NCBI GenBank assembly: GCA_963769935.1
Contig: CAVYNY010000010.1
Coordinates: forward strand, 567,890 to 591,889
Direction: 5' to 3'
Origin: an uncultured delta proteobacterium
GTDB taxonomy: Bacteria > Desulfobacterota > Desulfobacteria > Desulfobacterales > JAFDCJ01
DNA: 24,000 bases
Below the pieces are notes generated by a model. That model made no database searches, had not been told where the DNA came from, and worked only from the letters and a program-made list of their open reading frames with translations. Position numbers and translations under genes: made by a program. Position 1 is the first letter of the stretch, and every line of letters starts with the position of its first letter. Below, piece after piece: positions 3,168-24,000 of this stretch.

Positions 3168-3470
3168 CTATGGTTTCCACGCCGGTCGAGTGCGCGATTT
3201 GTCGAAACGGATCTCCGGGGGTTCGGCGGCCATCTCGACCACCAGAAGAACTTTGCGGTATTTCTCGGATCGCAGATGACACTGCACGTCCTCGTCACTC
3301 ATCCAGAGTTCCTCGAGCAGGATAGCGCGCCCATCCTCCACACCCCCATAAAGCCAGCGGCCGATACAACCCGGCTCGAATTGGGTCTGCTCGGTCGTCG
3401 AACCCAGAATTTCCAAGGCCTCGCTCTGCTTTTCAAGTGGTATGAGCATCCTGATGGTGGATCGTACCAT
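3168..3470 (-). CDS. Small ABM/Dabb-fold protein (antibiotic-biosynthesis-monooxygenase-like), 100 aa
   Basis: Intact ORF. The pattern ...FEPGCIGRWLYGGVEDGRAILLEELWMSDEDVQCHLRSEKYRKVL...EPPEIRF matches the ABM signature recalled from YgiN-like proteins (epGC..y.ly.d.ed.n.f.l.E.W.s.e.l..Hl.s..f). It lies downstream of the predicted sigma-54 promoter at 3627-3645. Confidence 0.6.
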   Translation of the reverse strand: MVRSTIRMLIPLEKQSEALEILGSTTEQTQFEPGCIGRWLYGGVEDGRAILLEELWMSDEDVQCHLRSEKYRKVLLVVEMAAEPPEIRFDKSRTRPAWKP

Positions 3471-3626
3471 TCTCGTCCCTTTAAGAGTCTTCAGGTCGAC
3501 GGTTTGTAAACCGTCCGCCGGGGATCCGAACCCGTCCGGAGGTTCACAGAAATTATTGATACTATCTGATGAAACAGCGCAGGCATCTCTGTAGATCTAT
3601 AAAATTTTCCTGCTTCCCAACTATGT

Positions 3627-4036: not shown

Positions 4037-4820
4037 TCAGGGCTGCAGGCCGACATTCGCGAGAGCGGTCCGGGCTGCTTCGGCGCTCAGCCGCTCGACG
4101 TGGGGCCTGACCTGCCGGATCACCTCCGGACTGAGAAACCGAAGATCGCTTTTCCAGGGAAAATCCGGCAAGGATGATTGGCTGCAGGGCGCCTGCGCGT
4201 AGCTTGCCAGGGTCGCCGGCCGAGTCTGGAAAATCGCGACAACGATGTTGGCATAGGGAGTTGCCGTGTTTTGGAAGGGCGAAAAAAATTGGGAGAGTCC
4301 CGAAAGAGCCTTGGTCCGGGTGTAGATTCCATAGCCTTTGGTGGCCACCGGATCATTAGCGATCTTAAAGCAGGCAACCTGCGGCCACCGGCCGGAGTCG
4401 TAGCTGCTTACGGAGATGATCAGATCCAGGCGGTTTTCTTCGGCGGTTTGGTTTATAAAGGCCTTGAGATCATCCCCCATCCACCCCGTAACGGCGTTGA
4501 GGATACTGTTTGACATCGACTGCTTCCAGTCTTGCGGGGCATTGCCCGCGATGGGGATAAACGTATAGCTGCCGCGGGCCCGCAAGTCACTTTCGATTGT
4601 CCGGGTGAGGTAACCCGGAATGTTCCAATCCACATTGTAATCTTTGGTAAAGCTGTCGAAGCGCAGCGATCCAACATCCACGTGGGTCATATCAGTCTCC
4701 AGCAGATTGAGGATGCCGATTCGGGCTTCCGGCGGCAACTGCAGCCGTACCGGTTGCGAACCCGCGCAACCCAGTTACGCTCATCATAATCAGAAACAAA
4801 GCAGGACGAAAGATGTGCAT
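4037..4820 (-). pseudogene. Hypothetical lipoprotein with a 1-nt frameshift inside the signal peptide (or an N-terminally truncated cytoplasmic version starting at TTG 4738)
   Basis: ATG at 4820 has a strong RBS (AAAGGAG, 9-nt spacer) and encodes MHIFRPALFLIMMSVTG... The main 233-aa ORF frame, read upstream of its TTG start, gives *LGCAGSQPVRLQLPPEARIG. Removing one A in GTAACTG (about 4774-4777) yields MHIFRPALFLIMMSVLGCAGSQ..., a textbook lipobox. The body has no family I can recognise. Confidence 0.55.
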
Positions 4821-4897
4821 GTGACAGGGCTCCTTTATTTTAGCAGCTAATTGACTGATTTTACGAAAAATGCCTGCTTAATTGTAATGGAAATTAT

Positions 4898-5116
4898 GAA
4901 AATCCCAAGCACCAAAAACCAAATCCCAAACAAATATCAATGATTCAAATTCAAAATTCCAAACAATTGAACCGTCCACAGTTGTGCCAACGGCATCATC
5001 ACCGGCAGACGAGGGGTTGAGAAGCGATGCGATACAACTATTTTGAATGTTTGGGTTATTGAATATTCAAAAATTTGCTATTTATTTGTAATTTGGTGCT
5101 TGAGATTTGGGATTTT
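4898..5116. repeat. Heptamer-periodic inverted-repeat element (about 219 nt) with a GC-richer unique core
   Basis: The left arm 4901-4963 is built of 7-mers: aatccca agcacca aaaacca aatccca aacaaat atcaatg attcaaa ttcaaaa ttccaaa. The right arm 5041-5116 is its imperfect reverse complement (tttggtgcttgagatttgggatttt versus aaaatcccaagcaccaaa). The core 4967-5040 contains the stem AGTTGT...ACAACT. A related module, ccaaaaaccaaat, recurs at 10839-10851. Confidence 0.5.
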
Positions 5117-5283
5117 ATTTTCTCACATCTTCTGGTCAAACTGGCTTAGAAGGCACTTTGGCGTGACCCTGGTGCATGTGATGACTCCTAACGAATCACT
5201 AATAGCTTCGACCTAAATTGAGCAATTAAATTGAGAAGATTGCTACAATCGCATGTGCAGGCAGGGACGTCCTCTGAGCTTTC

Positions 5284-8200
5284 CTAGCTTTTCAATTCGT
5301 TTGCCAATTTCAGGATGCCATCCACGTCAAAATCTTCAGACAGTTGAATGATTTTGTCACAAAAAGGTATCAGAACATTGTCTTCAGACTTCAATTCTTC
5401 GGCGATGGCCGCGGCTTGCATCACATCCCCCATTTCAGCCGCCGCTTTGATGCGATCGGCCGCTTTCTGAGCCAGATTATGCGGTACAACCAGCGTCCCG
5501 CCGCCGATCCTCTCGTTGGTTTTCTTTTCAGCCGTGGGCGCTATGATTTTAACCGCGTCCAGAGCCTGCTCGAGCGCACTTTCCAGTTCTGTTAATTTCC
5601 GGTTCAATTCCTTCTCGGAGGCAGACTTCGCAGTCTGCCCCTTAACAAGTTTTTCCATTGCCACGGCCGCCGCCTGAAGGTCGACGGCGGCCAGATTCCC
5701 GGCCAGCCCCTTCAGGTTGTGGATTAGGCTGTGGGTATGATTAAAATCATTGGCCGCCAAGGCTTCCCGAATTTCGGCGGCGGCGCTGCCGTAGTTGGCG
5801 CCGAAATCAAGCAGCAGCTTGCGGTAAAGGTGTTTGTTGCCCATCAGGCGCGCCAGACCGGCTGCCAGATCGAAGCCCGGCAATGATTCCGGCAGATGAT
5901 CTTCATCCGGCTCCGCCTGAACAGCTCCCGCGGATGCATCACTTGCCGGCGGCCCTACTGAGGCGGTTAAACTTTTTTGAACCACGATTCGCCCCGAAAC
6001 CGGCTTGATCCACTTTTGCAGGGCAGCAAACAGCTGGTCCGGATCAATCGGCTTGGTTACGTGATCGTTCATTCCGGCTGCAAGACTCTTTTGTTCGTCA
6101 CCGGACATGGCATGCGCCGTCATGGCGATAATTGGAAGGCCAAAGGCTAAAGGTGAAAGGCTAAAGGTTTCATCGCGGTATTCTGTCTTGTTTCCGCTAT
6201 CTCCGACTCGCTGTCCTATGTCCTCTGTCTTCTGACCTATGTCTTCTGCTTGCCGCGCCATAGCCCGGAGGGCGACGGCGGGTCCTCTGTCTTCCGCATT
6301 TACACTATGCGCTATGCTCTTTGCGCTAGGCTTTAAATTTTCAGCTTCCCACATCCGGATTTGCCTTGTGGCCGTGTATCCATCCATCACCGGCATCTGA
6401 ACATCCATGAGGACGGCCTCGAATTCCGCTGACTTTACCAGATCGACGGCTTCCTGGCCGTTATTGGCGATGGTGACTGTCAGCCCCGCCCCTTCCAGGA
6501 TCTCTTTGGCCACCTGCTGGTTGATTTCATTATCTTCCACCAGAAGCACCCGGGCTCCATAAATAGCCTTTAGCTGCCCGGCACTCGGTTCATTTGGCCG
6601 GCCGGCCGGAGATATGTCGTGAAGCTCTTTTCCCAGGGCCTGCATGACGGCATCGAACAGCATCGATGAGCTCACCGGCTTGATCAGAAAACCATCCAAT
6701 CCGATTTGATCGGCCTGCCGCATAATGTCTTCCCGACCGTAGGCCGTCACCAGGACGATGGCTGGGATTTTACTCAATTGTTTATGGGTCTTGATGCGCC
6801 CGGCGGCTTCGATGCCGTCCATGCCCGGCATCTTCCAGTCCATGATGACAAGCTCAAACGGTTTATCCCGGTCCACCCGTTCGATTTCCGCCAGGGCCGC
6901 TTGTCCGGAGGCTGCCAGAAAAACTTCGAATGAAAAAGATTCCAGAATTTCCTGCAGAATTTGGCGGGACGTGGCATTGTCATCCACCACCAGCACCTTC
7001 AAGCCTCGGATATCGGGCGACGGCACAAAACGCTTTTTGACCGCATCTTTTCCCAGACCGAAGACGGCCGTAAAATTAAAGGTCGTGCCTTTCCCGGACG
7101 CGCTTTCCACCCAGATCTCGCCGCCCATCAGATTGACCAGGCGCTTGCTGATGGTCAGCCCCAACCCGGTACCGCCGTACTTGCGCGTAGTCGAAGTGTC
7201 GGCCTGGGAGAAGGCCTGGAACAGCTTGGCCTGCTGTTCCGCCGTCATGCCGATGCCCGTATCCCGCACCGAAAACTGAAGGGTAACTTTATCCTCCGAC
7301 CTCATTTTTATCCGGGTGGTCAGCACAATCTCGCCTTGCTCGGTGAATTTTACCGCATTGTTTCCCAGGTTGACCAGGATTTGATTGAGTCTTAACGGAT
7401 CTCCGACCAGGAAGTTGGGCACCCGCGAATCGAGGTAGAACAAAACTTCCAGATTCTTTTTTTCCTGCGCTTTGATGGTGATCACATTGGCGACGTTATC
7501 CACGGTCTCCGATAGATCGAACTCCACGACTTCCATTTCCAGCTTGCCGGCTTCGATTTTTGAGAAATCCAAAATGTCGTTGATGATCCCCAGCAGAGAA
7601 TTGGCCGAAGATTGAATTTTGTTCAAATAATCCTGCTGCTTGGGCGTCAGCTCGGTTTTCAGCGCCAGGTGGGCCATACCGATTACGGCATTCATCGGGG
7701 TGCGGATCTCATGGCTCATGTTGGCCAGAAAATCGCTTTTGGCCCTGGTGGCGGCTTCGGCCTTAACCTTTTCTTCGTCGAGCTTCTCCATTATGTTAAG
7801 CATGGCCGATTGGGCCTCATCCAGTTCTTTAATGCGTTCATGCAGATCGTTCTCCATTTGTTTGCGCTCGGTAATATCCAGAAATGAGGCCAGGACATCA
7901 AGGACATCACCCTTTTCATCGCGCGTGCAGGCAACGGTTATATTGGTATATACGATTGCGCCGTCCTTGCGGATAAAGCGCTTGTCAAGGGTGTAGTTGT
8001 CGATTTGACCGGTCAGCATCCGTTCGAACTGTTTTACATCGGCAGTGAGATCGTCGGGATGGGTAAGCTCGGCCCAAGTCATCTGGCGCAGCTCATCCAG
8101 CGTATAGCCAAACATTCGCTGCAATTGATCATTGGCCTCCACCCATCCTTTGACCGGCGAGGTGATCGCCATTCCGGTCTGGCTATGCTCAAAATAACTG

Positions 8201-10596
8201 CGAAACCGGGCCTCTTTTTCCCGCATGCGCTCCCCCATCAGCTTACCTGCGGTAATGTCACGCAGTGATTCGATGGCACCCGCAACTTCACCGGCCGTAT
8301 TATAAAGCAGGCTGGCGGTCCCGCTGACATACATGCCGTTCTCGCCCAGCGCCGGGTGAAAGGATTCACTGATCAGGATTTCGCCGTCCTTTCTAACCGA
8401 CAGGTATTTCTTTTCATAGGTTGCATCCCAATCTTTTACCAGGTCGATTAAGACGGGGCGTCTTTCGCCGTAAAACGGCAAAGCATATTCATAATTACCC
8501 TTGCCGATCATATCCTCGGCGGGGATATTCAGAAGGTTTTCCATGGCCTTGTTCCAGGCGATCACGATGCCGTCGCAATCGATCACCCAGGTGGGGTCCG
8601 GTAAAAAATCGATAATCTGGGCCAGACGCCGCTGGGATTCCTTGGATGCTTTTTCAGTCCGCTGGCGCTCTTTCACTTCCCTGGCCAAAGTCCTGTTCCA
8701 GCGAAGAATGATAAGCAGAATAATTGCCGAGATCCCCACAGCGGCTGCCGCCACCCGGATGACCAAGCCCCAATCCACCTGTTGCTCAAAGCGGACATTG
8801 ATCCAGCGGTTTTGAATGTCTGTTTTTTCCGAATCCGGGACGGTGCCCAAGCTGATATTCAGGATGTTGACCAGGTCGGGCCAGTCTTTGCGCACCGCAA
8901 AGCGAAGATCATAGGTATCGGGGGTGGTCGTGACAATCTTGAGGTTGCTCAAACCCAATTTCTGCGTGGTATAGGTAATGGAGGCGAGATCGCCCACGAA
9001 GGCGTCTATGTGTTTCCTTGACAGGGCTCGCAGCGCATCCTCGATGTTGTCTGCCAGGTAAAACCTGCGGTTCGGATATTTCTCTAGGAGATATTCCTGA
9101 TTCGCACGATCTCGGACGAGGCCCACGCGACCGTCCTTAAAATCCTTGACAGTATTGCCGAATGGGACATTGTCCCGGGTGAGAATAACTTTGGGAGAAC
9201 TCAGGTAGGGATTTGTGAACAGAAAAACCTGCGACAGCTCCGGGGTCTTCGCCACACAGGGCAAAACGTCAATTTTTCCTGCTCGGGCAGCGTTCATGAC
9301 TTGAGTCCGGCTAAGCCCTTCAACCGGTTGCATGTTTATCTTCAACTGCCGGTTTAAGCGGCGGACATAATCTGCGGCGATTCCCGCAAAGATATGGGCG
9401 GCATCGAAATATTCAAACGGCGGCCGGTCCGGGTCCACACCGAGGCGGATATTTTTGTGCGCTGCCAGCCATGCCTTTTCGTCCACCGTCAGTTCGATGC
9501 TTCTTTGCCGGGGGGCGAGACGGGCCGCAATTTCATTCAGATCAAACTGGTACAGCTTGAGGGTTGGATTTTGGGCTTTGGAGAATTGACGAAAATCCAG
9601 CGATCGCACGGCCTGGGAGGTAAACGGAGCCAGGCTTTGGGCGTTGGCCCGCGTCAGGGCGACCATGGCCGATCCGAACTGCAGCTGTTCATTGGCGAAA
9701 TCGACGCCGTTGAGGTAGTCGAACAACAAGACGACGGCCCAGGCTCCATCCAAAAAGTGTCCTCCCACACTCACCTGCATATGGTCCTGCTGAATGGCTT
9801 CGAGGGCGTCTTTATCCCAATCGACCCCGCCGATGAGGATTTTCCGCTTTAGATGCAGCTCTTGAACAGCCTTCACCACACCCATCGCCATATTGTCGTT
9901 GGCGCACCACACAATGTTCACATTCGAATGCGAGCTGTAATAATCTTTAAATTGGTCATAGGCGGTTTGGCGGTTCCATTTGCCCGCGACAATTTTGAAG
10001 GCATCCAGCCCCTTTAAGTGTTTCAGATATTGGCTAAGGCCTCTCACCCGGTCGATGGAAGACTCATCTTTGGGATTGCCCTCGATGGCAAGCACATCAA
10101 AACGCTCGATGCCTTTTGATCTGGCCTCATTGATCAGTTGCTGAATGAGAAGGGTCCCGGCCTTGACATCATCCGGCAGCACACTGCTGATCCAGTATTC
10201 ATATTTGGTGCGCGGCAGAAGATCCTTTTCCGGCAGTTGGGAATTAATGAGTATGGCGGGCGTTTTATGATCTTCGGCAATCTGCAGGATCCGTTCGCCG
10301 GTGTTTTGGTACGCCAGAAAAATAATGCCGTCAATTCCTCCCCGGACGGCTTCTCTAACCTGCGCCACCATTTTCTCCGGATCGTCGTCGGCGTTAAAGG
10401 CCTGAAGTGTCACTCCCAGATCCGCGGCGGCTTCTTTAGTGAAAAAGACGGCTTTCGTCCAGAAAGGATCGTCGCGAGGGTAAAAAATGGCAACCTTGAA
10501 GTTTTTGGCGTATAGCGGCGGCGGCGCTGCGAGGCCTAAAAGAAGCAAGCATGTAATAAGAATTGAAAAAATGCATGGGGGAGTGAAACGTGCCAT
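5284..10596 (-). CDS. Hybrid sensor histidine kinase, 1770 aa: signal peptide, PBP type-1-like domain, SBP_bac_3-like domain, TM, PAS x2-3, HisKA, HATPase, REC, REC, HPt, C-terminal extension
   Basis: Uninterrupted 5.3-kb ORF. Signal peptide: [30 protein letters not shown]. Sugar-binding-protein-like region: [13 protein letters not shown]...[11 protein letters not shown]. Amino-acid-binding-like region: [16 protein letters not shown]... TM: [23 protein letters not shown]-box: [18 protein letters not shown] boxes: [26 protein letters not shown]1: [24 protein letters not shown]2: [35 protein letters not shown]. HPt: [14 protein letters not shown]. Confidence 0.92.
6136..6345 (-). repeat. In-frame, heptamer-built 70-codon segment in the alpha3-beta4 loop of REC2 of the 1770-aa kinase
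   Basis: It lies between the conserved IRMWE and [10 protein letters not shown] motifs. On the plus strand there are three blocks of 7-nt tandem units. Block 1, 6140-6167: ccaaagg ctaaagg tgaaagg ctaaagg. Block 2, 6183-6252: ten in-phase units including ctgtcct atgtcct ctgtctt ctgacct atgtctt. Block 3, 6303-6330: cactatg cgctatg ctctttg cgctagg. REC1 of the same protein has only 7 residues in this loop. Confidence 0.6.
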
Positions 10597-11035
10597 TGCC
10601 GCCTCTTGCTAAGTGCATGTATTCGTAAATACGCTAACGTATAAGAATAAAGCCGAACTATTGACAAAATACTGTTTTCCTGTGAATACGTTACTGTAAT
10701 TACGAAATAGAGTACTACTTCTTTAGGTATAAGGTTTGTCCTCCGGTCCTTGGGCAACTGTTATCAAATGGGATCGGAGGAACCTTTTCGGGGACGCCGC
10801 TCGAAGCGGTTGGTTTAGATTAAACTAAACACGAAACGCCAAAAACCAAATATCAAGCACCAGAAATTCTTGCCAAAAGATTCGTTTTTAACTTTTTACA
10901 TCGCCATCATTTTAGCTAATCAATCTGCCCTGACTGCCCTGAAAAATAACGAAAATTCAGACAATGGCTCATTATTTTCATTTGGGTAGTCTGTCAATTT
11001 TATAAAGATCGATAGAGCGAAGCGATTCAATAATT

Positions 11036-11072
11036 TTAGGCACTTTAGGCACTTTAGATCATTTTAGGCACT
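11036..11072. repeat. Tandem 9-mer array TTAGGCACT (3 good copies and 1 degenerate) in the inter-kinase spacer
   Basis: ttaggcact at 11036-11044, 11045-11053 and 11064-11072, with degenerate ttagatcat at 11054-11062. aggcacttt also occurs at 5151-5159. Confidence 0.6.
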
Positions 11073-11144
11073 TTTTTACAATACAATATCAGTATGTTAT
11101 AAAAGCTGCCGGAAGTTAAAATAAATAGGACACAGCAGAATTGA

Positions 11145-14114
11145 TTATCTTCTCAATTCATCCGCCAATTCCAGGATACCACTCAGGTCAAAATCCTCAG
11201 ACAGTTGAATTATTTTGTCACAAAAAGGTGTGAGACCATTATTTTCAGACTTCAACGTTTTGGCAATCGATGCTATTTGCACCACATCTCCCATTTCAGC
11301 CGCCGCTTTGATGCGATCGGCCAGGTCTCGAGCTATTTCGGGGGCTATACAGGCCATTTCGGATTCGGTGCACGCGACGGTTTTCTTTTCAGACATGGGA
11401 ACCAGGGTTTGAACCGCGTCCAGCGCCTGCCCGAGAGCTTCTTGCAGGTCTGTTAATTTCCGGTTCAATTCTGTATCGGAGGCCGCCTCCCCTGCCCACC
11501 CTTTAACGAGTTTTTCCATTGCCACCGCTGCTGCCTGGAGGTCGACGGCGGCCAGATTTCCGGCCAGCCCCTTCAAGTTGTGAACCAGGCCGTGGGCACG
11601 ATTAAAATCTTTGGCCGCCAATGCCTCACGGATGTCAGCGGCGGCGCCGCAGCAGCTGGCGCCGAAATCAAGCAACAGCTTGCGGTAAAGGCGCTTGTTG
11701 TCCATCAGACGCGCCAGACCCGCCGCCAGATCAAAGCCCGGCAAAGATTCAGGCAGTTCATCTTCATCCGTCTTCGCCTGAACAGCCTGCGCTGGTGCAT
11801 CAGGTACCGGTGACCCTCCTGAGGCGGGCAAACTTTTTGGGTCGACGATCCGCTCTGCAGCCGGTTTGATCCACTTCTGCAGGGCGGCAAACAGCTGGTC
11901 CGGATCAATGGGTTTGGTCACATGATCGTTCATCCCGGCCGCCAAACTCCTCTCCCGATCGCCGGCCATGGCATGGGCCGTCATCGCGATGATAGGAATG
12001 GGATGCTGGATGCTGGATACTGGATACTGGATACTGGTTGGCGGCAGTTCAGAGGACTGAGGACCCGTCTTCGTCGGGGTAAGTGAGGGAATACGCCGCG
12101 GCGAGCTGAGGACCGAGGGTTGGCCCTCGATTTCGGATTTTAAATCAGAATCCTCTCCGACAGTCTTCCTTGTTTTCAATACATCAGTATCCGCGTTAGC
12201 GGAGACTGATTCCCACTTCCGGATCTCCCGTGTGGCTTCAAAACCGTTCATCTCAGGCATCTGTATATCCATGAGCACCACATCGTAGATCCGCTCCTTG
12301 ACCATCGCCGCTGCTTCTTTGCCGTTGTTGGCAATGCTCACCACCAATCCTGCGTTCTCCAGAATCTCCTGCGCCACCTGCTGATTGATCGCATTGTCCT
12401 CCGCCAGCAGCACTTTTGCCCCGCGAATCTTATCAAGCTCCTGCGCCGCATCGGTCCCCGCCCGGGCTTCGCGCTCAAGCTCAGGAACTTCCTTGCCGAA
12501 AGCGGCCATGATCGCGTCAAAAAGCATGGACTGGCTCACGGGTTTGAGGAGAAAACCATCCAAGCCTATTTTCTCGGATATCCGCATGAGCTCTTCACGG
12601 CCATAGGCCGTCACGATGATAATCTTGGGCTTGCGGGGGATGTCGGAATGCCTGTTGATAATTTCGGAAGCCTCAATGCCATCCATCCCCGGCATTTTCC
12701 AGTCCATCACCACCAGCTGATACGGCCGGAGCTTCGCTTCCCTCGCCAGTTCTGCGATGCCCTCCTCCGCCGAGGCTGCCACTGAAACCTCAAAACTCAT
12801 GCTCGCAAGCAGCGTCTGTAGAATCTCACGGGAGGATGCATTGTCGTCCACGACTAAAACCCGCATCCCCTTCAGATCCAGCGACGGCTCCAGGTATCTC
12901 TCCGTCACTCTCCCCGTTAAACCGAATTTTGCGGTGAATATGAAATTGCTGCTCTTGCCGGGTTCGCTCTCAACCCAGATTTCCCCTTTCATCATGTTCA
13001 CCAGGTGCTTGGAGATGGTCAGCCCGAGCCCCGTTCCCCCGAACTTGCGCGTCGTGGACGAATCCGCCTGGGTAAAGGCCTCAAACAGCTTCTGCCTCTG
13101 CTCGGGGGTCACTCCGATCCCCGTGTCGCGAACGGAAAATCGAAGCATCACCCATTGTTCCTCTTTTTCCACCATTTCGGTGGCAAGCACGATCTCTCCG
13201 GCCTCTGTAAACTTCACCGCATTGTTGCACAGGTTGGTCAGCACCTGGCCCAGCCGCAATGGATCCCCCACCAGCGCCATGGGCACCTCCGGCGCCGTAT
13301 CCATCAGGAACTCCAGCTTTTTGTCCTGAGCCTTCACACCGGCAATCGTCGCTACGTTATCCAGGACTTCATCCAAGCCGAAATCCACAGACTCCATGTG
13401 CAGCTTCCCCGCTTCAATCTTGGAAAAATCCAAAATGTCGTTGATGATTCCCAGCAGGGAATTGGCGGAACGCTGGATCTTGTTCAAATAATCCTCTTGC
13501 TTGGGGGTCAAGGCCGTCCGAAGCGCCAAATGAGCCATTCCGATCACGGCATTCATGGGGGTCCGGATCTCATGACTCATGTTGGCCAGAAAATCGCTCT
13601 TGGCTTTTGTGGCGGCCTCGGCCGCCTGCTTGGCGAGGTGCAGTTCCTCAGCTCTGGTTTTTAATTCTTCGTTTTTGGCCTTCAGGTCGTTCAAAAGTTC
13701 CAGCCTGGAGGGACGTGCCAGACTTTGTCTTTGCATTTCGACAAACTCATCCGACAGGTGACCGGCGCTATCCGGCAGATAGCTGAATGTCCTGATTCTG
13801 ACCGTCTTCTGCTCAGTGCGGTCGATTTCAAATGTGTCAAAAAAAAATTTTAAATTCGGCATTGAGATCAATTGCTCAGGGCACTGAAAGGTCATCCATA
13901 GTCCGCTCCGGCCCTCACGCCGGTCAATGCCGACAGAAATTTTTGTGCCCTTGCCGCCCTTTCTTCCCAAGCCGGTGATTTCAGAAACAATCGTTTCCAG
14001 CCGGGTGGCATGAATCGGTTCGCAGCCTAAATCTTCGGCCAGCAAGCGAATCTTTTTCCGCGCCGCAACTCTGGTATTTTCGTTCTTTACCGATAAATTA
14101 CCGAGTTTGATCAT
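11145..14114 (-). CDS. Cytoplasmic hybrid histidine kinase, 989 aa: novel N-terminal domain, coiled coil, HisKA, HATPase, REC, REC, HPt, C-terminal extension. Paralogue of the 1770-aa kinase.
   Basis: Intact ORF with RBS GGAGG and a start that overlaps the rsbX-like stop by 17 nt. No TM segment. H-box [16 protein letters not shown]; [10 protein letters not shown]; DTGIGV; GGTGLGL. REC1: [27 protein letters not shown]2: [35 protein letters not shown]. HPt: [14 protein letters not shown]. From the H-box to the C-terminus it aligns by eye at roughly 70-75% identity with the 1770-aa protein. Confidence 0.92.
12000..12209 (-). repeat. In-frame segment of about 70 codons in the alpha3-beta4 loop of REC2 of the 989-aa kinase, containing a 7-nt tandem array
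   Basis: It lies between IRKWE and (I)[10 protein letters not shown]. Plus strand 12001-12035 reads ggatgct ggatgct ggatact ggatact ggatact, which encodes [13 protein letters not shown]; the repeat is therefore at DNA level, not protein level. The distal end has cagtatcc (12186-12193), complementary to ggatactg. There is an internal hairpin GAGGGttggCCCTC. Confidence 0.6.
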
Positions 14115-14709
14115 GCTTCCTACCTCCCAGATACTTCAGCACAATACAGGATGCGTCATCATTTTCCTTCCAAAATTGCTTGAGCAGCGCGCTGGCGATG
14201 GATTCCGCGGTACCTTTCAGTATTTCCGGACACTCGGAGAGTTCGAAATGCTCCTTAATGCCGTCTGAATGCATAACGAGAACATCTCCAGCCAATAGTT
14301 TCAGGGCTTGCTTTTTGACGGTGGACATCATGTAGCCGACGATTCCATCTCTGGAAACGAATCGAACGGCCCTCGGACCGAGCACCCTTACCACGATGTT
14401 GCCCATACCGACGTAAATCAGCTCGCCTGTCGCGGTGTCCAAACGGCAAATGGCCGCCACGGCGCCCCGCGTGCCCTTGAGACACGTATGCAGACCCTGC
14501 ATAACTTCGACCGGCTCTTTGCGGCAATTCTGTTCCAGATACGTTTGGGCTGTAAGCGCAACATCATGCGCTTCGCGCCCGTGGCCCAGCACATCAACCA
14601 GTGCCAGAAAACACCGGCCGTCAAACTCTTTTATGACCCCCGTGTCGCCGCATTCAGCTTCTCTTCGGGTAAGCGCTCGCTTTACCAGATGGCAGTCCAC
14701 TCTTGACAT
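14098..14709 (-). CDS. rsbX: PP2C/SpoIIE-type serine phosphatase, RsbX-like (about 203 aa)
   Basis: The start is taken at MSRVDCHL (ATG 14709) inside track ORF 14098..14997, because the upstream part of that ORF overlaps the rsbT-like gene. The sequence ECGDTG...ALVDVLGHG...[12 protein letters not shown]...GMGNIVVRV...LVMHSDGI parallels B. subtilis RsbX (..CGDSF..AVADGLGSG..RGATASILK..SVGNVRF..IIHTDGL). Confidence 0.8.
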
Positions 14710-15142
14710 AATCGCCCCACTTCCGTGTTGAAACAACGGTGCCGCGCCCCGGCTGAGACTCGATCCTGAACTCGTCCATAATCCGTTTAACGCTCGGCAA
14801 TCCCAGCCCCAGGCTGCCTTTAGTCGTGCTGAAATTATCCTGCAGCGCCTGTTCGATGTCTCTGATTCCCGGCCCGTCGTCACGGGCAATAATTTCGATG
14901 CCCAAGCGGTTGTTGCGTTGGACAATTCGCAAGGTAAGTTCGCCTTTTTGGGCATAGTTGACGATGTTGGTCGCGAGCTCTGAAGCCGCTGTGGCAATCA
15001 AAAACTGATTGACTTCATCGAAACCGGCCGCAGCAGCCAGGTGTCTCGCCGCTGTAATCACCTGCTCCTTGTCGTTCTGATCGGACAGCAGGATTCGTCT
15101 TTCATTATATTTCGGCGGGGCGGCCCGTTCATTGTTCACCAT
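14654..15142 (-). CDS. rsbT: RsbT-like GHKL serine kinase / switch protein (anti-sigma regulatory factor family)
   Basis: ATG 15142 has an AAGGGG RBS; the track ORF starts at GTG 15157. The start overlaps the rsbS-like stop by 14 nt. The sequence VITAARHLAAAAGFDEVNQFLIATAASELATNIVNYAQKGELTL..IIARDDGPGIRDIEQALQDNFSTTKGSLGLGLPSVKRIMDEF parallels B. subtilis RsbT (ISELARNIYLYAG..AEDQGPGIPD..GFSTSGGLGAGLPGVKRLMDEF). Confidence 0.85.
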   Translation of the reverse strand: MVNNERAAPPKYNERRILLSDQNDKEQVITAARHLAAAAGFDEVNQFLIATAASELATNIVNYAQKGELTLRIVQRNNRLGIEIIARDDGPGIRDIEQALQDNFSTTKGSLGLGLPSVKRIMDEFRIESQPGRGTVVSTRKWGDYVKSGLPSGKASAYPKRS

Positions 15143-15584
15143 CGCTGTCCCCTTCACCGTTTTCTATTACGATGCTATCCGGGTCCTCAGCGTCCTGAAC
15201 CCCCTCCTGAATCGATAAAACGTTTTGGATCTGCTCGAACCCGTCTTCCATGGTCAGGGCCGCACGGATACCATCGATTTCGACCTCCAGATCGATCAGC
15301 GACGATACGACGCCGGGCTGCAGGCCGACGAATACGTTCGCCACCCCCAGCAGCGACGTCATCCGCGCGGTGTCGGCCAGGAATTTGAACGCATGCGAAT
15401 CCAGGGCGCGCACCGTACTAAGGTCCAGTATCATCCCCCGTACTTTCGCTGCTTGAATTTTCTGCAAAATGGCCGTTCGAATTTTCATCAGCGTGTCATC
15501 GTAAAGCTCACCCTGCAAGGTAACCACAAGACAGCCGCGGATGGTGCTCATTGCGGTTTCGCTATCGATCAGCAGGCCTTTCAT
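15129..15584 (-). CDS. rsbS: RsbS-like STAS-domain protein with an acidic C-terminal tail
   Basis: The ATG lies 2 nt after the rsbR-like stop. The sequence CLVVTLQGELYDDTLMKIRTAILQKI..GMILDLSTVRALDSHAFKFLADTARMTSLLGVANVFVGLQPGVVSSLIDLEVE parallels B. subtilis RsbS, including the phosphorylatable Ser context (MIDSFIAK versus ALDSHAFK). Confidence 0.85.
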   Translation of the reverse strand: MKGLLIDSETAMSTIRGCLVVTLQGELYDDTLMKIRTAILQKIQAAKVRGMILDLSTVRALDSHAFKFLADTARMTSLLGVANVFVGLQPGVVSSLIDLEVEIDGIRAALTMEDGFEQIQNVLSIQEGVQDAEDPDSIVIENGEGDSDGEQ

Positions 15585-15586
15585 TA

Positions 15587-16411
15587 TCAGGATTTCCTCC
15601 CCAGGGGCTTGATTTCGCGCACCTCAAAATTCATCATCTTGAACGAATCCTCCAAGGCGTCTCTTAAAGTAGAGTTGGTCTTGACCTCACCCATCTCGAT
15701 TCCCAACTGGACGATCGTACTCGCCACAGCCGGCGAAATCCCGGAAATAATACACTGGCAGCCCATCAGCCGCGTGGCCTTGGTGATCTTGATCAGGTGA
15801 TTGGCCACGGCGGTGTCGACCGCTGCCACGCCCTGGATGTCAAGGATGATTACCTTGGCCGACGTCTCCTTTATTTTGGTCAGCATGGTGTTGGTCATCT
15901 GCTGAGCCCGCATGGAGTCGATCACACCCACCACCGGAAGGACCAGCACCCGGTCCCAGAGTTCGATGGTCGGCGTCGATATCTCCCGGATCGTGCGGCT
16001 TTGTTCTTCCAACCTTTGTTCATCGCGGACCTTCTCGCTGATGTCGAGCATAAATTCCAGACCTCCGATGACATTTCCTTCCGGGTCTTTGAGTGGGACG
16101 GCATAGTATTCAATGTACACGGTTTGATCGCCCATTGGAATCTCATTCCGACCGGACCGAACCTCATAATTCTCTATGGCCTGAAGCATTCGGCAGTCCA
16201 TGGTCTGGCAATGGGCTGAACCAAATAGATCGTAACAGTGCTGTGTTGCGACCTCCTCCCATGACTTGCCGAGGAATTTGCGACCGGCGGCATTCATGTA
16301 AATGATTTCCAAGTCTTTATTCACCGCCATTACCGGGGTAGGAATTTGTTCCAGAATCTGCTCCTGAATTCCAGAATATGCCTGATTTTCTGTTTTGATC
16401 TTTTCGTTCAT
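15587..16411 (-). CDS. rsbR: RsbR-like stressosome sensor: N-terminal Cys/His-rich PAS domain plus C-terminal STAS domain
   Basis: RBS AGGAG. The C-terminus VIILDIQGVAAVDTAVANHLIKITKATRLMGCQCIISGISPAVASTIVQLGIEM closely parallels B. subtilis RsbRA (IDITGVPVVDTMVAHHIIQASEAVRLVGCQAMLVGIRPEIAQTIVNLGIEL). The N-terminus is PAS-like (IPTPVMAVNKDLEIIYMNAAGRKFLG...). Confidence 0.85.
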   Translation of the reverse strand: MNEKIKTENQAYSGIQEQILEQIPTPVMAVNKDLEIIYMNAAGRKFLGKSWEEVATQHCYDLFGSAHCQTMDCRMLQAIENYEVRSGRNEIPMGDQTVYIEYYAVPLKDPEGNVIGGLEFMLDISEKVRDEQRLEEQSRTIREISTPTIELWDRVLVLPVVGVIDSMRAQQMTNTMLTKIKETSAKVIILDIQGVAAVDTAVANHLIKITKATRLMGCQCIISGISPAVASTIVQLGIEMGEVKTNSTLRDALEDSFKMMNFEVREIKPLGRKS

Positions 16412-16481: not shown

Positions 16482-16560
16482 ATCACGAAAATACGAAATA
16501 TAGAAAGCACGAAATTTATCTTATCTTTTTCGTGTTTTCGTCCTTTCGTGCTTTCGTGAT
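16482..16560. repeat. Imperfect 33-nt inverted repeat built of (t)ttcgtg(n) 7-8-mers, between the asmA-like and rsbR-like genes
   Basis: Left arm 16482-16514: atcacgaaaatacgaaatatagaaagcacgaaa. Right arm 16528-16560: tttcgtgt tttcgtcc tttcgtgc tttcgtga t. 26 of 33 positions are complementary, with a 13-nt loop. T-runs flank it on the plus strand only. Confidence 0.6.
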
Positions 16561-16617: not shown

Positions 16618-19600
16618 CTATTGCCCGATGCTGTGGATGTTGCACGGATGGGCTTTATAAGCGCCGAGGTTGACAAAGGGCGCCAACAGTCCGAGCGGGC
16701 CGATCACCAGCGCACTGAGGGCCTTGGCGCCTTTCGATAATAGAGAAAACATATCCGGCCGCACCTTGGGGTCCGTGATCGGGCCGCTGACGCGCAGCTT
16801 GGTCCAAAAGTCCATGAGGCTCGGAAATCTGGGCTCCGGAACGAGCAAAAAATCAACCTGTTCCGTGCCCAGATTGATGTCGCCTTCGCCGGTCAGCACA
16901 CCCGCCTCGGTGTCGAACACGAACGCTTGGCTGGCTGCTATTCCGCTGCTGATATCAAATTGAACGACGGCGCACTTGATTTCTCCGCCTTCGTGGTGGC
17001 TGCCCCAGAAATGAATGACCTTTCTGGTAAGACCCAGCGAAATCAGGTCCAGGTAGTGGGTCAGGTAGCCTTTGCCCATGACGGCCCCCACGCTGCCGTC
17101 CAGACCGGCCATCAGATCATGCAGGGAGCCGCCCCGGCTATTGACATCGACGGCGATATCGAGGTGGGAACGGACCTGCTGGCTGATCCGCAGTCCCCGC
17201 AGAAGTCCGCCGAGGTCAAAGTCCTGGACGAGGAATTTGGCGGCGACCCGGGCCGGCGATTCGGGATAGAGATGGAAGTTGCCGGAAATTCGGGTCTGCT
17301 GGTAAGTCGCCTGAAGCGTTTCGACGTTGAGATCACCGTTCTCGACGGTGAGCATCAGGCGGCCGAACTCAAAGTTTGCATCGCGGGCGCGGACGTTTTT
17401 AGCATTCAGGCTGATGTCTGCGTCCACTTGCTTGAGAATATTTAAAGGCAGCGGATCATCGCTGAATAATCGGCCTTCCAACCTGCCGGGCTCCCTACCG
17501 GGCTCTTTTTCGTCCTGCCTCAGATTTTTCAGCAGCGCCGTCATATCCAGCAGCGAAGATTCCAGTCTCAATGTGATCTTCGGGCGTTCGCGAAACTCAA
17601 CTTTTGCCAGGCCGTTGAAGTCGCTTTTATCGACGACCGCCGTCAAATCGGCCAGGGAAAAAGACCGGGCCGACCCGCTGAGATGTCCGCTGAAATCAAA
17701 GGGGCCCAGTTCGGGGAGGTTGGCGCCGACCAGGGGACCGATCTCGGCCAATTCCTTTCCCCCGGCTTTCAGCCTCAGGTCCATGCCTTCGAGCGCCGGC
17801 AGGTCTTTGATTGTCCCGGTTGCCTCCAGGCTTAAGCTGCCGCGCCGGGCCTCGCCCCGGACCTCCTGCAGGGACAACGCCCCGGCTGAGCCCGCCAGGC
17901 GACCCTGCAGTGAAAACGCATCGGTCGGGGGCAGCTTCTGTCCGACAATTGTCTCAGCCTGGGCCAAGTCCTTGCCGGCCCCTTTCAGTCGCAGATCCAC
18001 ATGCCGAAAGGCGCGCAGGTCCCCAATCTTGCCGGTTACCGTCAGGTTCAGGTCGCCGCGTAGGGCCTGGCCCATAATGTCATGCAAGGACAGCGCCCTG
18101 CCGGAGCCCGTCAGACGGCCCTCCAGAACAAATTCATCCGTCGACGGCAGCTTCTGTGCTATGATCGACTCCGCCTGTGCCAGGTCTTTACCCGTACCCC
18201 TCAGCCACAAATCCACGTAGCGGAAGGCCGGCAGGTCCTCGATCGCACCCTCGACCGTCAGGTTCAGGCTGCCGCGCCGGGCCCGGCCCCGGATATCATG
18301 CAGGGCCAGCGCTCTGCCGGAGCCCGTCAGGCGACCCGCCAATTCAAATTCATCGGTCGAAAGCAGCTTCTGCCCGATGATCGACTCCGCCTGTGCCAAG
18401 TCATGGCCCGTGCCCTTAAGCCGCAGATCCACTTGCCGAAAGGCAGCCAGGTCCCCAATAGCACCTTCGGCCGTCAGGTTCAGGCTGCCGCGATGGGCCC
18501 GGCCCTGAAAATTCTGCAGGGACAGGGCTTTGGCTGAGCCAGTCAGACGACCCTGCAGGGCAAACTCATCGGTCGGCGGCAGCTTTTGACCGACAATCTC
18601 TCCCACCTGCGCCAAGTCCTTGCCCGTACCCTTGAGCTGCAGGTCCACGCCCTGGAAAACAAGCAGGTCCCCGATTGCACCCTCGGCCGCCAGGTTCAGG
18701 CTGCTGCGCCGGGCCTGTCCCCGAACGTCCTGCAGGGACAAGGCCTTGGCCGAACCCGTCAGACGGCCCTCCAGGGAAAACTCATCGGTCGGCGGCAGCT
18801 TCTGACCGACCATCGCTCCCACCTGCGCCAGGTCCTTGCCCGAACCCTTTAGCTGCAGGTCCATGTCCTGCAGCGCCATCAGATTGCCGACTCGACCGCT
18901 GACGGCCAACGCAGCCTCGCCGGCCGACACAGTGCCGCTGATGTTTTCCAGCATAGGAAACCGGCCGGAACCTGCCAAATGTCCGCTGAGATCGAAAGCG
19001 TCCGTCTGCGGCAGCTCTGCACCGATACCACGCCCTAACTCCTGGAGGCTCTTCCCAGCGACGCGAAACTTCAGATCAAGCCCTTGCAAAGCGCGGACCT
19101 CACCGATCGATCCGGCGAGGTTGACGGTTGCGCTCAAAAACCGTCCTGCCAGCTCAAGCGGAAACTGTTCGCCTGATACGATCCGCTGCAGCCGGCCGAT
19201 CCGGCCGGAAAGCGCAACGGGCTGCCCGTTGTAGTCGGCCTGGAGCTTGAGCGCCAGAAAATCAGGATCTGCCCGCCGGGCTATTTCAAGGCCGGCCAGA
19301 TTGAACCGGGTCGTATGGGCCGCTTTCTCATCGCGATAGGTGAGCTTAAGGTTTTCGACCCGGATATCCTCCACCGCGATATGCAGGCGGGTGGGCGGGC
19401 CGGATGGCGATGCAGAGCCGGCAGAGGCTGTAAATTGCCAGTTGCGTTGCCCGGCTGCATTCATCACCAGGACCACATCGACGCCGGATAGCGTAAGATA
19501 CTTCAACTCGACATCACCGAACAACAGCGGCAGGAGCCGGACCTTGGCCTCTATTCGCCGGGCGGTTATCATCTGCGGGTCGGAAGCCCAGGGGGCGTTG

Positions 19601-19818
19601 GCCAAAGCCACTTCCGTGACCATAAGGGCCGGTGATAAACCGAATTTAAGACCCACCTCGCCGCCCAGCGTCAATTCCCGGCCGGTGCGTTCTGCGACCA
19701 TCCGCTCGATCCGCGGCTTGAGCTTGGCGTAGTCGTAGGTGCTCAAAACCAGATAGGCCGCTGCCGCCAAAGCGACAATTAAAGCGGCCCCGACCAATGC
19801 AATCCATTTCCAACGCAT
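16618..19818 (-). CDS. AsmA-family protein (1066 aa) with an expanded internal repeat region
   Basis: Intact ORF. The N-terminal TM anchor and AsmA-type start are MRWKWIALVGAALIVALAAAAYLVLSTYDYAKLKPRIERMVAERTGRELTLGGEVGLKFGLSPALMVTEVALANAPW. The C-terminus is AsmA_2-like (..DLNVETLQATYQQTRISGNFHL.. GGEIKCAVVQFDISSGIA). Confidence 0.85.
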   Translation of the reverse strand: MRWKWIALVGAALIVALAAAAYLVLSTYDYAKLKPRIERMVAERTGRELTLGGEVGLKFGLSPALMVTEVALANAPWASDPQMITARRIEAKVRLLPLLFGDVELKYLTLSGVDVVLVMNAAGQRNWQFTASAGSASPSGPPTRLHIAVEDIRVENLKLTYRDEKAAHTTRFNLAGLEIARRADPDFLALKLQADYNGQPVALSGRIGRLQRIVSGEQFPLELAGRFLSATVNLAGSIGEVRALQGLDLKFRVAGKSLQELGRGIGAELPQTDAFDLSGHLAGSGRFPMLENISGTVSAGEAALAVSGRVGNLMALQDMDLQLKGSGKDLAQVGAMVGQKLPPTDEFSLEGRLTGSAKALSLQDVRGQARRSSLNLAAEGAIGDLLVFQGVDLQLKGTGKDLAQVGEIVGQKLPPTDEFALQGRLTGSAKALSLQNFQGRAHRGSLNLTAEGAIGDLAAFRQVDLRLKGTGHDLAQAESIIGQKLLSTDEFELAGRLTGSGRALALHDIRGRARRGSLNLTVEGAIEDLPAFRYVDLWLRGTGKDLAQAESIIAQKLPSTDEFVLEGRLTGSGRALSLHDIMGQALRGDLNLTVTGKIGDLRAFRHVDLRLKGAGKDLAQAETIVGQKLPPTDAFSLQGRLAGSAGALSLQEVRGEARRGSLSLEATGTIKDLPALEGMDLRLKAGGKELAEIGPLVGANLPELGPFDFSGHLSGSARSFSLADLTAVVDKSDFNGLAKVEFRERPKITLRLESSLLDMTALLKNLRQDEKEPGREPGRLEGRLFSDDPLPLNILKQVDADISLNAKNVRARDANFEFGRLMLTVENGDLNVETLQATYQQTRISGNFHLYPESPARVAAKFLVQDFDLGGLLRGLRISQQVRSHLDIAVDVNSRGGSLHDLMAGLDGSVGAVMGKGYLTHYLDLISLGLTRKVIHFWGSHHEGGEIKCAVVQFDISSGIAASQAFVFDTEAGVLTGEGDINLGTEQVDFLLVPEPRFPSLMDFWTKLRVSGPITDPKVRPDMFSLLSKGAKALSALVIGPLGLLAPFVNLGAYKAHPCNIHSIGQ
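17563..19074 (-). repeat. Coding tandem array, 7 x 216 nt (72 aa); the central five copies are highly similar
   Basis: The protein units start L(Q/R)LKG(S/T)GKDLAQ..GQKLPPTDEF.L.GRLTGS..ALSL....G.A.RGSLNL...G.I.DL..F..VD. They cover aa 249-320, 321-392, 393-464, 465-536, 537-608, 609-680 and 681-752; the first and last are degenerate. At DNA level, neighbouring central copies (17779-18858) are about 90% identical by eye over stretches such as actcatcggtcggcggcagcttctgaccgac. Confidence 0.85.
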
Positions 19819-23042: not shown

Positions 23043-23687
23043 CTATTCGGGTGATGACGTTTTGTAAGGCCAGGAGCAAAATTTATTTAAAGGACATGCC
23101 GGGCATTTTGGTTTGCGGGCCGTACAGGTTTCGCGTCCGAAAAAAATAAGCCTCAACGAAAAATCACGCCACTCCCGTTTCGGTATGATTTTCATCAAAT
23201 CGAACTCGATTTTCACCGGATCTTTGTTGTCTGTCAGGCCCAACCGCTGCGCAATTCGACCGACGTGAGTATCCACCACGATTCCAGGGGTCTCGAAAAC
23301 TGCTCCCAGAACAACATTGGCGGTCTTGCGCCCGACCCCGGGGAGATTGGTCAGTTCCTCCAAAGTGCCCGGCACCATGCCTTTATGGACAGCCAATAAC
23401 GCTTGGCTGCAATTTTTGATATTTTTGGCTTTGTTGTGAAAGAAACCCGTCGGACGGATTAGCTGCTCGATGGCATTCAACGGCGCTCCGGCAAAATCAG
23501 AAGGCGTTTTCAGGTGCTTAAACAGTTCGCCGGTAACCCGATTGACCTGATTGTCGGTACACTGCGCCGACAGGATGACGGCCACCAGCAGCTGAAAGGG
23601 CGTTTCGTAATTCAGCGGGGTTTTGACTTCCGGGTAGCGTTCTCTAAGAATTTTGCGGATTCGATCAACGCGGTTTTTAAAGTTCAT
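23043..23687 (-). CDS. nth: Endonuclease III (DNA-(apurinic/apyrimidinic site) lyase / glycosylase)
   Basis: 214-aa ORF. FQLLVAVILSAQCTDNQVN; HhH-GPD motif LPGVGRKTANVVLG; catalytic VDTHV; C-terminal 4Fe-4S ligand pattern CTARKPKCPACPLNKFC (C-X6-C-X2-C-X5-C). Confidence 0.92.
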   Translation of the reverse strand: MNFKNRVDRIRKILRERYPEVKTPLNYETPFQLLVAVILSAQCTDNQVNRVTGELFKHLKTPSDFAGAPLNAIEQLIRPTGFFHNKAKNIKNCSQALLAVHKGMVPGTLEELTNLPGVGRKTANVVLGAVFETPGIVVDTHVGRIAQRLGLTDNKDPVKIEFDLMKIIPKREWRDFSLRLIFFGRETCTARKPKCPACPLNKFCSWPYKTSSPE

Positions 23688-23691
23688 GCTT

Positions 23692-23891
23692 CTGTCCGTT
23701 GTCGGTTGTCAGTTGCAAAAGTAAGATCGCTGGTCTATTTTATGAATCATGATTCTACGAATTGCAAATTGACGATGCATCAGTAGTTTTTTAATTTAGG
23801 AACACAGCATATAGGACGCAATTCCGTTGATCGTCAAGGTTTAATGATTTTTCCCACAAGTTACTGACAACGGACAACAAACAACAGACAG
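23692..23891. repeat. Heptamer-armed inverted-repeat element (about 200 nt) in the divergent nth / PP-loop intergenic region
   Basis: Left arm 23692-23713: c tgtccgt tgtcggt tgtcagt. Right arm 23863-23891: actgaca acggaca acaaaca acagaca g. About 18 of 22 positions are complementary. A 149-nt AT-rich core lies between them. The left arm begins 5 nt upstream of the nth ATG. Confidence 0.55.
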
Positions 23892-23941
23892 CGCGTGAAC
23901 AGCACCTTTAAACATAACATCAAAAAGGCAAAAGACGACGT

Positions 23942-24000
23942 ATGAATACCAATAAACAAAAAGCACGCGCTTTAGGCCTAAGCTCCGGCGGCCTGGATAG
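23942..24000 (+). CDS. N-terminus of a PP-loop (SGGxDS) ATP pyrophosphatase-family protein (partial, runs off the right edge)
   Basis: Own translation from ATG 23942: MNTNKQKARALGLSSGGLDS. SGGLDS is the PP-loop motif shared by MnmA, QueC, ThiI and argininosuccinate-synthase-type enzymes. The specific family cannot be assigned from 19 codons. Confidence 0.4.
   Translation, partial: MNTNKQKARALGLSSGGLD

Follow-up and report, generated by a model that had tools for sequence, protein, structure and literature searches.

Results

Two paralogous hybrid kinases with long insertions at one site of the second receiver domain

The window analysed here is a stretch of 24,000 nucleotides (nt) from an uncultured delta proteobacterium (GenBank assembly GCA_963769935.1, contig CAVYNY010000010.1, positions 567,890 to 591,889), and the feature under study is an insertion of about 70 codons in the second receiver domain (REC2) of a hybrid histidine kinase encoded on its minus strand. 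This gene, kinase A (11145–14114, minus strand), was defined by the open reading frame (ORF) call, its translation and its Pfam domains; it encodes 989 amino acids (aa) with the domain order HisKA, HATPase_c, REC1, REC2 and HPt. Its paralogue, kinase B (5284–10596, minus strand; 1770 aa), carries periplasmic-binding and PAS sensor domains followed by the same HisKA-HATPase-REC1-REC2-HPt core. At the DNA level, A and B are 81–83% identical over the HPt end (5285–5804 versus 11146–11665) and around HisKA (7518–7762 versus 13379–13623), and only about 71% identical over the REC region; judging from these alignments, the uneven identity could be the result of gene conversion between the two paralogues. 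The closest relatives of the window are metagenome-assembled genomes labelled Desulfobacterales, Desulfococcaceae, Desulfobaccales and similar, with no more than 55–64% identity in the best matches.

The insertion of A lies in the alpha3-beta4 loop of REC2 (12000–12218, minus strand), which comprises 73 codons (KWESVSAN...SSIQHP) and is bordered by the end of alpha3 (..EIR) and by beta4 (IPIIAMTA). As the canonical receiver has 7 codons at this place, about 66 codons are extra. A previous interpretation of this DNA, made without database searches and referred to here as the sequence-only reading, had described an insertion of about 70 codons in A and another one at the same REC2 site of the paralogue. 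Both are confirmed: the loop of B (6139–6354, minus strand) has 72 codons, and its site is identical to that of A. The distance between the phospho-acceptor Asp and the conserved Thr is thereby extended to 96 residues in A and 95 in B, compared with exactly 30 in 86 of about 170 receiver domains from 161 related loci.

The domain hosting the insert is a receiver according to Pfam (PF00072, E 3.5e-51), and its catalytic residues are intact in the translation (E-D in LLAEDN, D in VLMDIQMP, T in AMTAHA and K in VTKP), as is the HPt histidine motif of A. The solved receiver 8phn_A matches REC2 of A at E 1.8e-28 with an alignment split by the insert, in which query residues 76–144 replace 7 residues of the known structure. 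An AlphaFold2 model of the domain, run on a 17-row alignment and used solely for the predicted lack of structure in the insert and its placement between alpha3 and beta4, shows the usual beta-alpha order, with residues 77–137 at a predicted local distance difference test (pLDDT) value below 50 and without secondary structure; it is a poor model, with a mean pLDDT of 52. Polar or disorder-promoting residues make up 74% of the insert. In the CheY fold, the alpha3-beta4 loop and the active site are on opposite faces. Disordered insertions in this loop are frequent in fungal receivers and less usual in bacteria (PMC8510515).

The inserts consist largely of seven-nucleotide units

The most regular part of the insert of A is a heptamer array, (AGYATCC)5.3 on the coding strand (12001–12037, minus strand), for which Tandem Repeats Finder (TRF) gives a period of 7, 96% matches and a score of 60. 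The five heptamers previously assigned to 12001–12035, two ggatgct and three ggatact, are exact. Since 7 and 3 have no common factor, an array of this kind passes through all three reading frames and gives a 7-aa repeat (three units of 7 nt correspond to 7 aa), AGTATCC being translated as SIQYPVS and AGCATCC as SIQHPAS. Elsewhere in the insert, two AAATCCG units (12128–12141, minus strand; peptide KSEIE) are what remains of an array of the SEIRNPK type, which homologues commonly have. Units of the CCTCAGT type are interrupted by a GC-rich block of 39 nt without period 7 (12066–12104, minus strand). This block is bounded by a 9-nt direct repeat, ctgaggacc (12057–12065 and 12105–12113), whose two copies may, from their sequence, simply be array units, and it is missing from the homologous insert of P0002/L162. 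Kinase B carries a GC-rich block of its own at about 6247–6281; one GC-rich mini-element present in A and B in opposite orientation was considered and rejected, with 261 of 1000 shuffles scoring as well.

Around the GC-rich block of B, TRF detected three period-7 arrays (6136–6167, 6212–6243 and 6305–6328, minus strand), which had not been noted in the sequence-only reading. In both loops, nucleotide autocorrelation is highest at lag 7 (0.40 in A and 0.50 in B; background about 0.25–0.26). Over the complete window, a lag-7 match of at least 0.47 was reached by 299 seventy-nt windows, versus 2.3 on average and 40 at most in 200 shuffles, and lags other than 7 gave at most 86 such windows. The highest lag-7 value, 0.63, belongs to the array at 12001–12037. 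The seventy-nt windows form six clear segments, namely the two REC2 loops, two arms at 4880–4988 and 5035–5136, and two inverted arrays at about 23.7–23.9 kb, and a seventh one (692–770) that is barely at the cut-off. The period-7 segments of the window are 4880–5136, 6122–6382, 11954–12090 and 23674–23942.

On the same strand, the inserts of A and B have no similarity beyond chance (195 of 300 shuffles align as well) and do not align with each other as a conserved domain. The reported match between 12050–12075 and the reverse complement of 6271–6296 amounts to 20 of 26 positions by direct count, as stated before, and the best local alignment of A with the reverse complement of B has 18 of 22 identical positions, a value reached by 3 of 300 shuffles. 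This match arises because A has CCTCAGT-type units where B has complementary ACAGAGG-type units. The octamer cagtatcc, described as complementary to the array at the other end of the insert of A, is present, one position away from the proposed 12186–12193, at 12185–12192. An 8-mer complementary to the array was found elsewhere in the loop in 93 of 5000 shuffles, so that the signal is weak, though above chance; it is explained by the fact that cagtatcc belongs to the conserved 5' module described below.

Loop length and content vary rapidly among homologous kinases

Homologues were searched with the REC2-HPt part of A as the query; the best 120 of thousands of relatives were examined, and the loop could be delimited in 112 of them. 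All these comparisons are between assembled metagenome contigs. Loop length ranges from 7 to 80 aa among the 112 homologues and up to 111 aa in related contigs with available DNA (L082), with the ordinary 7-aa loop KDERFKE and the 8-aa loop NLKSEIRN at the lower end. The 73 and 72 codons of A and B therefore fall within a continuous range of 7–111 aa, which is not compatible with the length constraint that the similar size of the two inserts had suggested. An expansion hotspot and a hyper-evolving linker, both proposed before, are by contrast supported by this range and by near-identical genes with different inserts. Pairs of genes with REC2 and HPt flanks 93–95% identical differ in the loop, one of them having 8 versus 31 aa; in other pairs with equally similar flanks, half of the insert is common and the other half is not. 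A and P0002/L162 have about 80% identity over the first 115 nt at the 5' side, and both carry the terminal AGYATCC array, whereas the middle differs. The number of AGYATCC units is 5 in A and 7, 8 and 8 in L162, L163 and L082, respectively.

The vocabulary of the inserts is one of 7-aa periodic peptides (GMRNAEC, SAFRIPH, SEIRNPK, TEDRGQR, KAQSSKL, SVLSPQS, TSNLQPP and SIQYPVS), and back-translation, borne out by the available DNA, assigns to them, in the same order, the heptamers GGAATGC, GCATTCC, TCCGAAA, ACAGAGG, AAAGCTC, TCCTCAG, ACCTCCA and AGTATCC. At the amino-acid level, the inserts have an autocorrelation of 0.243 at lag 7, compared with about 0.06 at the remaining lags. Gaps between related inserts cluster at 7, 14 and 21 aa (62, 23 and 12 cases), compared with 24 cases at 6 aa, 7 at 8 aa, 3 at 13 aa and 1 at 15 aa, in agreement with the previously suggested length steps of 21 nt. 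At the nucleotide level, 10 of the 11 homologous loops longer than about 27 aa with available DNA have their autocorrelation maximum at lag 7 (0.44–0.68; background about 0.25); the sole exception, the loop of L123, has no period-7 signal.

None of the 86 homologous loops in which both flanking motifs were located is out of frame. In silico, a change of one or two units in the array of A truncates the protein at residues 708–738, and a change of three units stays in frame. In two long contigs, L164 (5584–11458) and L165 (1254–11161), the homologous kinase is divided into several called genes, and L095 has a frame break shortly after beta4. All these breaks lie outside the heptamer loop, and they may consequently be long-read assembly errors or pseudogenes.

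A conserved 5' module and inverted arrays

The first part of the insert of A is formed by a module, TGGGAATCAGTCTCCGCTAACGCGGATACTGATGTAT (12179–12215, minus strand; called 39 nt), which holds the octamer cagtatcc. With DNA available, it recurs in six other genes, giving seven in all (A, L095, L162 and L164–L167). Among these seven genes, the module has a pairwise identity of 95% overall and 98% at third codon positions, compared with 70–71% overall and 50–51% at third positions for the 120 nt of REC2 coding DNA next to it on either side. The module could form a hairpin of 6+5 base pairs (bp), in which 10 of 11 pairs are invariant; over the first 33 nt of the module, sequence changes affect only the tetraloop and a single bulge position. 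Covariation was not detected in the seven genes: the pairs are invariant and there are no double changes. Rfam has no family at the insert or the module. Within about 1 Mb of fetched loci, a sample biased towards these kinases, the module was seen solely in REC2 loops, and it occurs once in the window.

In long homologous inserts, arrays of the first half are complementary to arrays of the second half, for example (GGAATGC)n...(GCATTCC)n, translated as GMRNAEC...SAFRIPH, and (ACTGAGG)n...(CCTCAGT)n. Hairpin-forming repeats are thus present in frame in intact ORFs of homologues. Comparison of predicted RNA folds with shuffled controls, which had been proposed as a check, gave a divided answer. 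The long homologues fold far better than their shuffles, with z-scores of -5.55 (L082), -5.57 (L088) and -6.22 (L095), and the window copies have a weak signal only, whole-insert folding being not significant for A (z -1.9; 8 of 200 shuffles) or B (z -0.45). As both orientations coexist as nested inverted arrays in the longer homologues, the weak terminal inverted repeats noted in A are best read as an eroded trace of a real architecture, not as a transposon end. The two inserts of the window appear as eroded versions of the inverted-array design, on which the intergenic elements of the window are built too.

Heptamer arrays outside the REC2 loop

A period-7 scan was extended to about 1 Mb of related loci, fetched by homology to kinase A. 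Most period-7 tracts in these loci are in the REC2 loop; others are in a loop of HATPase_c, in the linker between REC and HPt, and in intergenic DNA, so that coding heptamer tracts are not limited to the two loops of the window. The HATPase_c arrays are found in two genes of L022, a Desulfococcaceae HSG8 locus (3468–3626 and 7820–8088), and in L152 (2107–2233). They are translated in frame and sit between a conserved (D/Q)xGE(I/V) stretch and a second motif, and one of the L022 tracts exceeds 90 aa (SGQSSVV...). The REC-HPt linker array is located at 4675–4785 of L022. Intergenic arrays occur in L022, L164 and L165. That of L022 (1371–1712) has 45 copies, with TGACGAC as its unit; a coding array 6 kb from it repeats the reverse complement of this heptamer. 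In L165, GCTCAAA units were found in an intergenic tract together with TGGATRC units, which are equivalent to the GGATRCT of A.

Two intergenic elements of this kind lie in the window. The first one (4880–5136), downstream of kinase B, in the gap separating this gene from the ORF at 4037–4738, has inverted arms of the degenerate heptamers AAATCCC, AAGCACC and AAAAACC and their complement; inverted-repeat and lag-7 scans resolve it into two 42-nt arms that are 76% complementary, with a spacer of about 134 nt. A tract related to this element is present at 10827–10880. The second one, detected by TRF and the lag-7 scan, is an inverted pair, (GTTGTCN)n at 23693–23717 and (ACAACNN)n at 23866–23890, separated by an AT-rich spacer and located in the gap between the gene for endonuclease III and its neighbour; its unit family also occurs in L022.

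Other features of the window

Upstream of kinase A, a partner-switching cluster on the minus strand (14098–16411) encodes a PAS-STAS protein, a STAS protein, an anti-sigma-type HATPase_c_2 kinase and a SpoIIE phosphatase. Kinase A is its last gene, the end of the phosphatase gene overlapping the start codon of A. Repeats of other periods were also observed: 4.3 copies of the period-9 unit TTTAGGCAC between kinases A and B (11035–11074), and, between the PAS-STAS gene and an AsmA-like gene (16485–16558), two roughly complementary period-8 arrays, ACGAAAAT and TTTCGTGC. The AsmA/YhdP-like gene itself (16618–19818, minus strand) contains 4.8 tandem copies of a 216-nt (72-aa) unit with 77% matching at 17836–18863. 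Domains D1–D4 of a group II intron were found by Rfam at 572–822 on the minus strand (RF02005, 105 bits, E 3e-29), with ORFs nearby at 269–736 and 1390–2172.

Discussion

We consider it likely that the REC2 insert of kinase A is an in-frame translated mosaic of heptanucleotide tandem arrays, accommodated in the permissive alpha3-beta4 loop and arisen by slippage and recombination at the DNA level. It does not represent a conserved protein domain, and on this view it is mainly a by-product of repeat dynamics rather than a domain selected for its amino-acid sequence. The copy of A would then be old and partly eroded, with one clean five-unit array, remnants of other units, a GC-rich interruption and the 5' hairpin module.

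Based on these comparisons, we propose the following hypothetical scenario, in which (i) the arrays would grow, shrink and be exchanged at the DNA level; (ii) this could happen by slipped-strand mispairing, by misalignment promoted by hairpins, and by recombination or gene conversion involving the many paralogous kinases and other arrays; and (iii) selection would purge variants that break the frame or create stops. Surviving changes would then total multiples of 3 nt, most simply three units or 21 nt. The insert could be tolerated because the loop faces away from the phosphorylation site and its peptide is polar and probably disordered. The mosaic look of the inserts can be accounted for by a similar reasoning, exemplified by L082: where one frame of a unit contains a stop, as in ACTGAGG, at most two consecutive copies are tolerated.

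Several points weigh against this reading. The mechanism is deduced from comparisons between assembled metagenome contigs. The inserts of A and B show little excess folding, so hairpin-driven dynamics may no longer operate there. The share of arrays located in kinase loops is biased, as the loci were chosen by kinase homology. The AlphaFold2 prediction of a disordered loop comes from a model of low confidence overall (mean pLDDT 52). About 75% of the close homologues keep a loop of at least 19 aa, which suggests that the loop could be useful, and selection on the sequence or structure of the 5' module is not predicted by a purely neutral account.

This last point leads to the best of the alternatives, which we nevertheless regard as unlikely, that the hairpin module or the long array hairpins act as a nucleic-acid signal in mRNA or DNA, be it for pausing, processing, protein binding or recombination in cassette exchange. 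The module is far better conserved than its coding flanks, most clearly at third codon positions (98% versus 50–51%), the changes in its first 33 nt spare all but the loop and one bulge position, with 10 of 11 pairs invariant, and some homologous inserts are predicted to fold into very stable structures. However, this conservation would be explained equally well by recent copying among paralogues: the alignment of seven genes is consistent with either such copying or selection on the nucleotide sequence or structure. Covariation supporting the hairpin is lacking in these genes, Rfam gave no match, the module is present in only about a sixth of the inserts, and the whole inserts of A and B fold no better than shuffled sequences.

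Somewhat less probable still is a functional, hypervariable disordered loop in which the peptide itself is selected, for instance because it offers a surface for docking or insulation that separates paralogous phosphorelays, the heptamers serving to generate diversity. Most close homologues do keep an open, stop-free insert, in about 75% of at least 19 aa; several paralogues per genome are apparently present, two of them in the window; near-identical genes differ mainly in the loop; and the disordered alpha3-beta4 insertions of fungal receivers have been proposed to bind partners (PMC8510515). Yet the periodicity is one of nucleotides, and the peptide composition follows the unit sequence. The insert-free loop KDERFKE and the nearly insert-free NLKSEIRN are common in the family, and the same arrays are found in non-coding DNA.

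We think it very unlikely that a miniature inverted-repeat transposable element (MITE) or palindrome-associated element with terminal inverted repeats (TIRs) landed independently in both paralogues in opposite orientations, as the sequence-only reading had considered. The observations that prompt such a model are the terminal 8-nt complement in A and the match of A to the reverse complement of B (18 of 22 positions), both rare among shuffles, together with the strong inverted repeats of long homologous inserts, the similar inverted heptamer elements in intergenic DNA, and the conserved 5' hairpin module, which could be an end recognised by an enzyme. A discrete element would, however, have to account for an insertion whose codon position is shared by more than 100 homologues. 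TIRs common to all copies are absent, the ends differing between inserts and the inverted arrays being internal and variable, and no target-site duplication is visible at the loop borders of A and B, the direct repeat at 12057 and 12105 flanking an internal block only. Interchangeable modules make up the inserts in mosaic fashion, insert length taking any value between 8 and 111 aa, and the GC-rich blocks of A and B are dissimilar. Dispersed near-identical copies were not found in the window or in the 1 Mb of kinase-biased loci, where the module is limited to REC2 loops. Moreover, the shortest variant, IRNLKSEIRN, looks on back-translation like a tandem repeat of the native ATCCGAAAT codons, with a measured lag-7 signal in L092, and would suggest growth in place.

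The least probable alternative, by a narrow step, is a contingency (phase-variation) switch, in which a frame shift, caused by one or two heptamers being added or lost, would turn off the HPt domain and the latter half of REC2: it would fit a non-triplet repeat within an ORF, the truncation predicted in silico and the variable copy number among homologues, but none of the 86 homologous loops is out of frame, the array of A is short (5 units) and made up of two unit variants, the arrays of homologues are mostly imperfect mosaics that are poor at slipping, and the organisms are free-living and of sediment type, whereas such switches are typical of host-adapted pathogens.

Extending the preferred explanation of a translated heptamer mosaic, a more far-reaching hypothesis, which we consider doubtful, is that a self-propagating family of heptamer hairpins colonises permissive surface loops of signalling proteins (the REC alpha3-beta4 loop, the HATPase_c loop and the REC-HPt linker) in Desulfobacterales-like bacteria. 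The hairpin module would then be a recombination or priming signal, and cassette exchange would rapidly diversify a loop in dozens of paralogous phosphorelay kinases, possibly tuning partner choice or expression. If the hairpin module or a cassette-like exchange were indeed active, this would constitute a new way to diversify signalling proteins.

Coding DNA is expected either to lack non-triplet repeats or to use them as on/off switches, and this kinase family breaks that expectation. Its sensor kinases read 7-base repeats as fast-changing protein loops of up to about 110 residues within an otherwise highly conserved domain. The mosaic reading thus implies that selfish or slippage-prone DNA can make long disordered insertions in bacterial proteins, and it reveals a site of the receiver fold that is permissive. 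It also calls for caution in annotation, as peptide repeats such as SAFRIPH, SEIRNPK, TEDRGQR and SIQYPVS are translated DNA repeats and not protein motifs.

Comparison with known systems

Heptamer repeats are over-represented in bacteria; those described in cyanobacteria, Beggiatoaceae, some Bacteroidetes and Xanthomonas are mostly intergenic, and inverted arrangements have been noted (PMC4679880, PMC4692102). The short tandemly repeated repetitive (STRR) sequences of cyanobacteria are among them. TAACTGA repeats occur in Beggiatoaceae, cyanobacteria and Bacteroidetes and are occasionally translated as LSVISYQ (PMC4679880), and GGGAATC or GGGGAYT repeats are known from Xanthomonas and Nostoc (PMC4692102). 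Coding DNA is expected to hold repeats with a unit length that is a multiple of three (PMC4679880); the known heptamers are under-represented there, the few coding cases being hypothetical proteins (PMC4679880, PMC4692102). The arrays described here resemble these STRR-like heptamers in their tandem 7-nt units, the existence of several unit families, variable copy number, direct and inverted arrangement and intergenic presence; on direct comparison, the ACAACNG and TGACAAC units of the window are one base off the rotated TAACTGA of Beggiatoaceae. They differ in forming multi-unit mosaics that lie in frame in a defined loop of a conserved catalytic domain in more than 100 homologous kinases. 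Heptamer arrays in receiver or kinase domains, or in Desulfobacterales, were not found described in the literature searched, subscription journals being outside its coverage. The biology of heptamer repeats would thus be extended from cyanobacteria, large sulfur bacteria and xanthomonads to Desulfobacterales-like organisms.

Rickettsia palindromic elements (RPEs) are palindromes of about 150 bp that lie in frame in unrelated coding genes, according to the review PMC10969869, which cites Ogata et al. (2000, 2002). They share with the present inserts the occurrence of hairpin-forming repeat DNA in frame within functional genes, apparently tolerated at structurally permissive places. In contrast, RPEs are presented there as discrete elements of fixed length with a family consensus, scattered over unrelated genes. 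The inserts described here have no fixed length or ends and are composed of 7-nt arrays; most of them occupy a single loop of one kinase family, with a few in other kinase loops.

With contingency loci (PMC4692102, PMC8262952), the kinases have in common a non-triplet repeat in coding sequence, of which a single-unit change shifts the frame. They are distinguished from such loci by the lack of out-of-frame alleles among the loops compared, by short and imperfect tracts, and by variation that takes the form of in-frame length change and module exchange.

A structural parallel is provided by fungal receivers (Ssk1 and several groups of hybrid kinases), in which polar, Pro/Ser-rich inserts of similar size (38 +/- 16 aa in Ssk1) occupy the same loop and the same face of the fold (PMC8510515). 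In contrast to those of the present kinases, the fungal inserts are not reported as nucleotide repeats, and a binding role has been hypothesised for them (PMC8510515). Since alpha3-beta4 insertions are prevalent in fungal as opposed to bacterial receivers (PMC8510515), a bacterial kinase family that carries them is unusual.

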